Shown here piece by piece: positions 1-1,816 of a stretch of DNA of 64,000 nucleotides. Position numbers and translations under genes: made by a program. This stretch comes from Chrysomallon squamiferum (taxonomy: Eukaryota > Animalia > Mollusca). Within the stretch, counting starts at the first letter, position 1, and every line of letters begins with the position of its first letter. The stretch is taken from positions 2,170,001 through 2,234,000 of the forward strand of contig CM022667.1 of assembly GCA_012295275.1 (NCBI GenBank). The letters run 5' to 3'. The notes under the pieces were generated by a model, which saw only the letters and a program-made list of their open reading frames with translations, did not search any database and was not told the DNA's origin.

Positions 1-30
1 TCTGTTGCATCGATTACCACGTCTGATACA
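1..30 (-). CDS. Knottin precursor coding exon 3 (truncated by window edge): start of probable ICK domain 2
   Basis: Acceptor TTTTTTTAG|TGT; CIRRGNRCNR has the same C-x3-G-x2-C loop 1 as domain 1. Only 10 codons are visible. Confidence 0.8.
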
Positions 31-1181
31 CTAAAAAAATATATAAAAACAGTATAAGTATGAATGTTTATCTGTATATCTATCCATATATCCACCTACG
101 TATACATATTTTTATATATAGATATATATATATGACAAACATATATTACACACAGACAGACACACACACACACACATATATATGTAGATATAAATGCATG
201 AACGTAGGTAGATAAGGATGTAAGTATTTACAGATTTAGAGACATTAACGGTAAACTGGTAAATAGATTCACACATTAGATAAATATATAGAGACATATA
301 GACAGATAGATATATTGATATATATAGACAGACGGACAAAGAGAGAGATAAATAGGTAGGTAGATAGATTTATTTATTTATTTATTTATTTATTTGTTTG
401 TTTGTTTGTTTGTTTGTTTATTGATCTGAAAATTGCGAACGTTACTAAAATATTTAAATAATGTTTTCTATAACATACTAACAAAACGTTTTGTTTGTAA
501 AACTTAAGATTTTTAAAAATATAAACTTACACCTAAACCGCCGTTGTTTCCGTAACTACATCTGTTCTGTTGACATCTCAGAGTACCACAGCAACGACGT
601 TGTCCTAAAGTTTGACACCACTGTCCTTGACGTACACACTGTAATTTTAATAGGTTAGAAATGTTAATGAGTTCAATTTTATTTTCTTACTTATTTACTT
701 TCTTTCGTGCTGACTTAGTTACTTACTTTCTTTCTTACTTGTTTATATACTAACTTACTTGTTTTCTTATATATACAGAGAGAGAGAGAGAGAGAGAGAG
801 AGAGAGAGAGAGAGAGAGAGAGAGAGAGAGAGAGAGAGAGAGAGAGAGAGAGAGAGAGAGAGAGAAAATCAAATAGGTAGTTAGGTAGCTAACTAGACAG
901 ATAATAACAGAGATACAGATATACAAAAAGACTCTCTCTCTCTCTTTCTCTCTTTTTTTCTGCCCTCTCAGATACTCTACATGTTTAAACTGACAATATG
1001 AGTAGATAATGAATGACTGAAAAGAAATACTTTTCAAGTAAAGAAAAATAAGTGGCATCGCTGAAACTTTATCCTAAACAAACATCTGTGCATTAGAGAA
1101 ATCTCTTACATTGTAATTGTTGCTAAAAGCAAAAGCTGAAACTGCCATCGATACGAGAAGCCATAGTATCATGTACTGCAT
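1..1181 (-). CDS. Secreted multi-domain inhibitor-cystine-knot (knottin/conotoxin-like) peptide precursor, spliced, 3'-partial: join(1181..1110, 638..531, 30..<1)
   Basis: Manual splicing gives MQYMILWLLVSMAVSAFAFSNNYN | CVRQGQWCQTLGQRRCCGTLRCQQNRCSYGNNGGLG | CIRRGNRCNR...: hydrophobic signal peptide, C-x6-C-x7-CC-x4-C-x4-C, and the start of a second C-x6-C. All junctions are canonical GT/AG and phase 0. Confidence 0.88.
531..638 (-). CDS. Knottin precursor coding exon 2: ICK domain 1 + Gly/Asn linker
   Basis: Acceptor ATTACAG|TGT, donor GGT|GTAAGT; 108 nt = 36 aa, CVRQGQWCQTLGQRRCCGTLRCQQNRCSYGNNGGLG. Confidence 0.9.
777..864. repeat. (AG)n microsatellite in knottin intron
   Basis: Uninterrupted AG run. 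Confidence 0.95.
1110..1181 (-). CDS. Knottin precursor coding exon 1: signal peptide (MQYMILWLLVSMAVSAFA) + FSNNYN
   Basis: Acceptor (T)n-CAG with the exon beginning at 1187; ACAATG context at 1181; donor AAT|GTAAGA after 1110; 72 nt = 24 aa. Confidence 0.88.
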
Positions 1182-1618
1182 TGTGATCTGAAAAAAAAAA
1201 AAAAATTCGATGAAAAAACAGAGTGAGTGTGAGGGAGTGGATGTGTGGCTCTGTAGCTGTGTTTCTCTGAACATTTGATTATAATAGCATAATAAACAGT
1301 TTTCGTATTTCTAAAACAGATTGAGAGAATCTGATCTCTTTCAGTACTTTTTTGTTTTGTATTTGTGTGTGTGTATATATATACTAAAGGACGTTGTCAT
1401 AAATACATAAATTATTAATAATTTAATACACGTGTGTAACCAATGTTTGTTAATGTGTGTATGGCTAGTTTGTCTCAGTAGCAGGTATGCATAGATGGAT
1501 GGACGAATATCTATATGAACGTATGTATTATGTATGTAGCTATATATATGTATGTAAGTATTTATGTAAATATGTAGGTAGATAGGAAAGTAGGTAAATA
1601 GCGAACTAAAGATCATAA

Positions 1619-1722
1619 AGAGAGAGAGAGAGAGAGAGAGAGAGAGAGAGAGAGAGAGAGAGAGAGAGAGAGAGAGAGAGAGAGAGAGAGAGAGAGAGAG
1701 AGAGAGAGAGAGAGAGAGAGAG
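1619..1722. repeat. (AG)n microsatellite
   Basis: Uninterrupted AG run. Confidence 0.95.
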
Positions 1723-1757
1723 GATTAAATGTTACAGCTAAAACATTTAAAACGTAC

Positions 1758-1787
1758 CTGTTGTTCTGTTGACTGTTCTGGTTATAT
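1758..1787 (-). other. Probable short non-coding first exon (5' UTR) of the knottin gene
   Basis: Donor CAG|GTACGT at 1758/1757, about 50 nt downstream of a TATA-like box; the 5' end is approximate. Confidence 0.6.
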
Positions 1788-1808
1788 TCGTCTACTGGTG
1801 TCTTGTGG

Positions 1809-1816
1809 TTTAAATA
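1809..1816 (-). promoter_or_regulatory. TATA-like box (TATTTAAA) of the knottin gene
   Basis: TATTTAAA on - strand about 25-30 nt upstream of the inferred start of the non-coding exon. Confidence 0.55.

Follow-up and report, generated by a model that had tools for sequence, protein, structure and literature searches.

The minus strand at the left end of a 64 000-nt stretch of Chrysomallon squamiferum DNA (assembly GCA_012295275.1, contig CM022667.1, positions 2,170,001 to 2,234,000; this whole stretch is called the window below) carries at positions 1–1816 what we predict to be the 5′ portion of a spliced molluscan gene, the larger share of which would lie beyond the window edge. We lean towards reading it as a gene for a secreted protein in which strongly cationic, knottin-like modules follow each other in tandem, each encoded by a phase-0 exon of its own and connected to the next by a short linker rich in Gly and Asn. 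In silico, the predicted exon structure and the predicted knottin-like fold of the first module are both well supported, and a tandem architecture is likely, judging from the ten exon 4 residues that the window contains. Tandem knottin arrays are already known from Mytilus (mCRP-I) and from spiders (DkTx, Hi1a), and the snail gene would be a variant of this tandem knottin or secreted cysteine-rich repeat protein (SCREP) type, known from a mollusc already. New here are the placement of one module per phase-0 exon, the lack of a propeptide, the very high charge and the orphan sequence.

Exon model of the candidate gene

Read from the sequence, the region 1187–1 on the minus strand holds three coding exons with canonical AG/GT borders, and all junctions are in phase 0. 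The predicted features, in the order of transcription, are:

1809–1816, minus strand: TATA-like box TATTTAAA, a putative promoter element (sequence reading)
1758–1790, minus strand, 3′ end at 1758: putative short non-coding first exon, no ATG inside (suggested by the strong exon 2 acceptor)
1110–1187, minus strand: exon 2, a 6-nt leader and 24 codons, MQYMILWLLVSMAVSAFA followed by FSNNYN, whole product MQYMILWLLVSMAVSAFAFSNNYN (splice signals)
1181–1128, minus strand: predicted signal peptide (hydrophobicity and A-F-A motif)
639–1109, minus strand: intron 2, 471 nt, phase 0, with an (AG)44 microsatellite at 777–865 (sequence)
531–638, minus strand: exon 3, 108 nt, knottin-like module 1 and linker, product CVRQGQWCQTLGQRRCCGTLRCQQNRCSYGNNGGLG (splice signals, Cys array)
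31–530, minus strand: intron 3, 500 nt, phase 0, GC content 0.24 (sequence)
1–30, minus strand: the first ten codons of exon 4 (CIRRGNRCNR), which would run on beyond the window (T7-AG acceptor)

Exon 2 lies between a T15-CAG acceptor and an AAT/GTAAGA donor. Since so strong an acceptor requires something upstream, a preceding non-coding exon is plausible; the putative first exon ends in the donor CAG/GTACGT, with GTACGT at 1757–1752 on the minus strand. The leader of exon 2 has an A at −3, and the ATG at 1181, the earliest of the spliced message, is the start of the signal-like sequence. Kyte-Doolittle means over 9 residues reach 2.47 in this N-terminus, and the motif A-F-A, an A-x-A site, precedes the predicted cut; no Pfam family matched the signal exon. 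The first Cys of module 1 follows only 6 residues (FSNNYN) past that cut, and there is no pro-region. Exon 3 is bordered by a TTACAG acceptor, with a branch-point-like CTAAC ∼17 nt upstream, and a GGT/GTAAGT donor. It encodes the array C-x6-C-x7-CC-x4-C-x4-C (638–558) and the linker SYGNNGGLG (557–531). Six of its 36 residues are Cys, a density of 16.7% (the default of the SCREP database is given as >10%; PMC9885460). With five Arg and neither Asp nor Glu, module 1 has a net charge of +5, and the start of module 2 brings another four Arg in its first ten residues.

A preliminary description of this stretch, made without database searches, had placed a TATA-like box, a signal exon, a 108-nt exon and a further exon beginning CIRRGNRCNR here, with splice junctions 1110/638 and 531/30; all of these are present on the minus strand as it described them, and both junctions are in phase 0. 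Its spliced gene with a signal-like N-terminus gains in silico support from the splice signals, the hydrophobic core and the A-x-A site. The composition that it gave for the first domain (five Arg, no acidic residue), the strong positive charge, the missing propeptide and the linker free of dibasic sites can be read directly off the letters.

Perfect (AG)n/(CT)n microsatellites of 34–52 units lie at 777–865 (intron 2), 1619–1722 (intron 1) and 3612–3679 (intergenic DNA), and a (TAA)22 array occupies 2108–2173. Slippage or unequal exchange might be promoted by such arrays in the neighbourhood of small exons.

We compared the Cys array with chance expectation. Sought with a loose regular expression, C-C-CC-C-C turns up a single time when the window is translated in all six frames. 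In a set of 1006 dinucleotide-preserving shuffles at least one array was present in 48 and an array directly behind AG in 4; an AG-preceded array with an in-frame GT donor within 20 codons was found in 2, counts that take no account of the signal exon in matching phase or of the start of a second module. The GC content of exon 3 by codon position (1/2/3) is 0.50/0.61/0.28 at a window value of 0.279: the surplus falls on the positions that determine the amino acid and the third position stays at background, which is a coding-type pattern. The neighbouring DDX1 helicase gene follows this pattern in its exons (0.58/0.40/0.33). The motif C[VIL]R.G..C, which was defined post hoc and serves as a description, is found in six frames only at 638 and 30, both times directly after AG.

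Predicted fold of the first module

Each module would fold as an inhibitor-cystine-knot (ICK)-like unit with a C-terminal β-hairpin. In knottins the disulfides link Cys I to IV, II to V and III to VI, the third bridge passing through the ring, and the hairpin holds Cys V and VI. The AlphaFold (AF2) model of the 36-residue exon 3 product, computed from the single sequence with no alignment, has a pLDDT of 77.7 and forms a hairpin of strands 20–23 and 26–29. This hairpin recurs in a model of the 57-residue stop-to-stop open reading frame (ORF) around exon 3, in which 10-residue blocks over the Cys array reach pLDDT values of 74 and 81 and the end blocks, which are intron-derived flank, 59 and 48.

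Structural neighbours of the model are almost uniformly knottins. Foldseek returned 19 matches from the PDB at E ≤ 10, and 15 of these are knottin toxins; the best TM-scores are 0.60–0.66, all at E ≥ 0.6, with U5-scytotoxin-Sth1a as the best match (TM-score 0.66, 40% identity). In VIA-align 46 of 48,161 representative chains reached Z ≥ 2, nearly all of them knottins (top Z 3.4), and the superpositions on knottins gave root-mean-square deviations (rmsd) of 1.1–1.5 Å over 28–30 residues. The neighbours include Ep-AMP1, μ-agatoxin, MrVIB, tachystatins, AgRP, the DkTx lobes, an amylase inhibitor and gurmarin, a functionally diverse list with plant and horseshoe-crab antimicrobial peptides next to spider and cone-snail toxins. 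A language-model search of the ESM Atlas led to the families or clusters Toxin_12, Omega-toxin, Cyclotide and diguetoxin (top score 0.90), and the best phmmer matches in the PDB were agelenin (E 0.09) and U5-scytotoxin (E 0.15). So tiny a domain yields low structural scores. What speaks for the predicted fold is the one-sidedness of the neighbour list; a single-sequence model may just echo a learned knottin pattern. Larger Cys-rich folds (IGFBP-N, colipase/Dickkopf) also appeared in VIA-align at Z 2.0–3.0 and were rejected, as they need 10–12 Cys per domain.

Probable tandem modules and their linker

Exon 4 opens with C-I-R-R-G-N-R-C and exon 3 with C-V-R-Q-G-Q-W-C, which share C-[IV]-R-x-G-x-x-C; at the nucleotide level 14 of the first 30 positions of the two modules are identical. 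The modules would have arisen by duplication of a symmetric phase-0 exon. They would also stay joined after secretion, because the linker offers no convertase site: SYGNNGGLG contains neither a basic residue nor a dibasic site, and the sole RR is found within the knot, next to the CC pair on its N-terminal side. Joined in this way, rigid knots rich in Arg and spaced by flexible Gly/Asn linkers would gain avidity for a target that is anionic or repetitive. Linked natural knottins are sought as multivalent ligands, as stated in PMC9885460, and a highly basic chain that needs no propeptide would offer an easy scaffold for expression and testing.

The linker also bears on two other readings of the protein. 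It could be a polyprotein precursor, cut at non-dibasic linker sites into single peptides of ∼30 residues, each a knottin, with variants expressed together. Cleavage into smaller peptides has been proposed for multi-MgCRP-I precursors (PMC4558851), and the visible modules differ as in a cocktail of variants, with fewer than half of the nucleotides identical at their starts. Such processing is very improbable here: the linker lacks Lys and Arg, no amidation or convertase motif was seen in it, and the only RR falls within the knot.

Alternatively, the product could be a structural or matrix protein of shell matrix, periostracum, mucus, adhesive or egg capsule, or bind chitin, with the knots as cross-linking or polysaccharide-binding units. 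Extracellular repeat proteins that can expand typically give each module a phase-0 exon of its own, Gly, Asn and Tyr abound in the linker, the modules are strongly basic, and tachystatins, which bind chitin, are among the fold neighbours. We rate this reading as quite unlikely, with Trp7 the single aromatic residue of the module where chitin-binding knottins usually have several, no Pfam match to a chitin-binding or matrix family, and 'many repeats' a guess from 1.3 visible modules.

Small Cys-rich exons of this kind escape ORF-based annotation: exon 3 is buried in the 57-residue stop-to-stop frame, and the window edge truncates exon 4.

Searches for relatives

A word search of 5.8 billion proteins with the module (a 40-residue reference that includes 4 intron-coded residues) gave no match, neither among longer proteins nor among those of 22–70 residues. 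A full HMMER search of the 36-residue exon 3 product against 1.84 billion representatives found 0 matches at E ≤ 0.001, a setting in which only close or multi-copy relatives of so short a query could pass. The exact 30-mer of exon 4 occurred 0 times in metagenome contigs and 0 times in prokaryote genome contigs. Back-translated patterns produced 597 matches in metagenome contigs, 0 of which were confirmed by tblastn, and tblastn of the signal and module peptides found no paralogue in the 64 kb window. At E ≤ 10, Pfam reported no family for module 1 except Toxin_7. Distant relatives may still exist: the query has 36 residues and would be fast-evolving, and most of the proteins searched stem from gene callers, which would miss exons as small as these. 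The orphan sequence fits an undescribed family.

Comparison with known systems

The multi-array CRP-I proteins of Mytilus (multi-MgCRP-I, mCRP-I) resemble the predicted snail gene in that they are secreted, cationic mollusc proteins with tandem C-C-CC-C-C arrays that are predicted to be knottins (PMC4558851; PMC10138031). Their precursors carry 2–5 arrays each, and the family is described as lineage-restricted and fast-evolving (PMC4558851; PMC10138031). As these sources describe it, CRP-I has a conserved pro-region that ends in KR or RR, whereas the snail gene has no pro-region; all CRP-I arrays lie in a single last exon, whereas the snail gene has one array per phase-0 exon; and CRP-I introns are in phase 1 and phase 2 and the proteins are mildly basic (isoelectric point 7.2–8.8), whereas the snail introns are in phase 0 and the module has a charge of +5 (PMC4558851; PMC10138031). 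The CRP-I authors exclude exon duplication as an origin because all arrays lie in the last exon (PMC10138031). Membership in CRP-I was rejected for the snail gene on the missing pro-region, the lack of a dibasic site before module 1, the one-array-per-exon layout and the absence of a sequence match. According to the MgCRP-I authors, no such array was present in the genomes of Aplysia, Lottia or Biomphalaria (PMC4558851).

Spider DkTx and Hi1a have the plan predicted here, with a signal peptide ahead of tandem ICK modules and a short linker, and the DkTx lobes are fold neighbours of module 1. Both bind channels bivalently, and this mode of action serves as the working model for linked knots (PMC9885460; PMC6262176). 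They differ in coming from the venom glands of arachnids and in having two knots, and sequence homology was not detected.

Conus O-superfamily toxins share with the candidate a gastropod origin, the C-C-CC-C-C framework (VI/VII) and a six-residue first loop, and the μO-conotoxin MrVIB superposes on the module 1 model with an rmsd of 1.1 Å over 28 residues. Conotoxin genes are described as having three exons, for signal, pro-region and a single mature toxin, introns of >3 kb and a first intron in phase 1 (PMC3862624). In contrast, the snail gene has at least three coding exons, gives each module its own exon, and its introns measure 471 and 500 nt and are in phase 0. An O-superfamily conotoxin was rejected, with the pro-region absent, a different exon plan and no match to the Conotoxin family of Pfam.

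Two more systems are similar in part. The tachystatins of horseshoe crabs and Ep-AMP1 of a cactus are cationic single knottins of host defence (Z 3.4 for Ep-AMP1, 3.0 for tachystatin B and 2.1 for tachystatin A); they are single-domain peptides of other phyla, and the likeness is one of fold with non-significant scores. Lepidopteran X-Tox proteins have tandem Cys-rich immune-type motifs with an own exon for each, as cited in PMC4558851, but these insect motifs are defensin-like (CS-αβ) and not knottins (PMC4558851).

As a tentative further step, which we hold to be possible but somewhat short of even, the gene may be the first representative of a multi-knottin family that is new to science, restricted to a gastropod lineage and enlarged by duplication of a phase-0, one-knot-per-exon cassette. 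Its tandem arrays would have an origin independent of Conus toxins and of mussel CRP-I, and the product would be a naturally multivalent, hyper-cationic knottin chain that is made without a propeptide. In the literature covered here, no report was found of a one-knottin-per-exon tandem gene in a gastropod. If the gene is expressed, a C-C-CC-C-C knottin array is present in a gastropod outside the venomous Conoidea, and exon duplication, the route excluded for mussel mCRP-I (PMC10138031), is able to produce tandem knottin chains.

The ICK-like module of the preliminary description is upheld in silico by the Cys spacing, the AF2 model with its C-terminal hairpin and its neighbours that are almost all knottins, the language-model families and a sub-threshold match to Toxin_7. 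The multi-knot protein that it proposed agrees with the C-[IV]-R-x-G-x-x-C start of exon 4, weakly so at ten residues of a second module, and the undescribed family agrees with the lack of detectable relatives in protein searches (including HMMER) and metagenome scans. Membership in the O-superfamily, whose Cys pattern it invoked, is not supported, for the reasons named above. The toxin or antimicrobial role that it suggested would be a conjecture; the nearest mollusc analogues, Mytilus CRP-I, are reported to have shown neither activity (PMC4558851; PMC10138031). The architecture is less novel in view of the multi-array knottin precursors known from mussels and spiders.

Possible functions

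The protein would serve as a multivalent effector directed at microbes or parasites, in host defence or in the mucosa; use as a venom toxin for injection is less probable. By analogy we prefer such a defence or mucosal binding role tentatively, and in absolute terms regard it as rather doubtful. The tandem knottin arrays of Mytilus mCRP-I are treated as a defence family (PMC10138031), and a role of CRP-I against eukaryotic parasites has been suggested (PMC4558851; PMC10138031).

A neuroactive toxin or ion-channel ligand is the unlikely alternative to a defence effector; it would be a bivalent or multivalent knottin similar to DkTx and Hi1a or conotoxin-like, made in a salivary or venom gland for use on prey or predators. 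The closest neighbours in sequence and fold are mostly venom knottins, although antimicrobial, enzyme-inhibitor and hormone-like functions are also found among the knottin fold neighbours. The C6C7CC4C4C loops fall within the range of framework VI/VII conotoxins and a high positive charge is common in pore blockers, but no Conotoxin match was obtained in Pfam at E ≤ 10 and the nearest DDX1 protein is that of Gigantopelta, which is non-conoidean. Linked knots act bivalently on channels (PMC9885460); against a toxin, the gene lacks a pro-region and the three-exon plan of signal, pro-region and mature peptide that is described for conotoxins (PMC3862624).

Several points weigh against the proposed reading, from the gene model through to the defence role. 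Splicing and expression are predictions from the sequence, and the visible part amounts to 1.3 modules, the remainder lying beyond the window edge. No sequence relative appeared in any search, which leaves no support from conservation or covariation. The structural scores are individually non-significant owing to the short domain, and the Toxin_7 match (PF05980; residues 1–23, E 3.9e-4) has 21 bits and stays below the gathering cutoff of 27 bits. The defence function is purely inferred, and a high positive charge characterises pore-blocking toxins just as much. Moreover, synthetic Mytilus CRP-I peptides are reported to have had no significant antimicrobial or protease-inhibitor activity (PMC10138031; PMC4558851), and because of this 'cationic knottin = antimicrobial' is an unsafe rule in molluscs.

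Some of these points, namely a gene predicted in this way and without a homologue in any search or a paralogue in the window, would also fit a non-functional locus, be it a product of chance, the remnant of a dead exon or a pseudogene that is not expressed. We consider this highly improbable: chance alone is very unlikely (2 of 1006 shuffles) even with the signal exon in matching phase and the start of a second module left aside, the reading frames are intact, the six splice signals are good, and the GC content by codon position is of coding type.

Host lineage and the remainder of the window

The DDX1 helicase gene lies head-to-head with the candidate knottin gene at a distance of ∼3.3 kb. 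We located it through 17 exon matches at 5168–28243 on the plus strand, which cover residues 6–479 of the Gigantopelta protein over 23 kb. Among 71 full-length DDX1 proteins, the gastropod Gigantopelta aegis provides the nearest (79.5% identity over 533 aligned residues); other gastropods reach 71–76%, bivalves 72–76%, a cephalopod 74.7%, and nemerteans and annelids 70–72%. Over four shared exons the identity is 86.8% for Gigantopelta and at most 80.3% for all others. DDX1 identity places the host among the molluscs, most likely the gastropods, and not close to Conus. A nemertean origin, considered because nemertides, too, are ICK peptides, was rejected at a DDX1 identity to Lineus and Tubulanus of just ∼70%.

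The conserved C-terminal third of DDX1 (residues ∼480–731) was not found in the remaining 36 kb, where a weak 10-residue match occurs at 61531–61560 on the plus strand; this gap suggests an intron of >30 kb, a rearrangement or an assembly problem. Elsewhere in the window Rfam reported 0 families, and Pfam no family for 62 further ORFs. The longest stop-free frame of the window, 196 codons at 54012–54602 on the plus strand, has an AT-biased translation with neither a Pfam match nor a coding signal, and is probably non-coding. The GC content of the window is very low, 0.23–0.31 in 4-kb bins, although its DDX1 gene is closest to gastropods. Published values for molluscs are usually higher; the cause may be a lineage rich in AT or an isochore of local extent.

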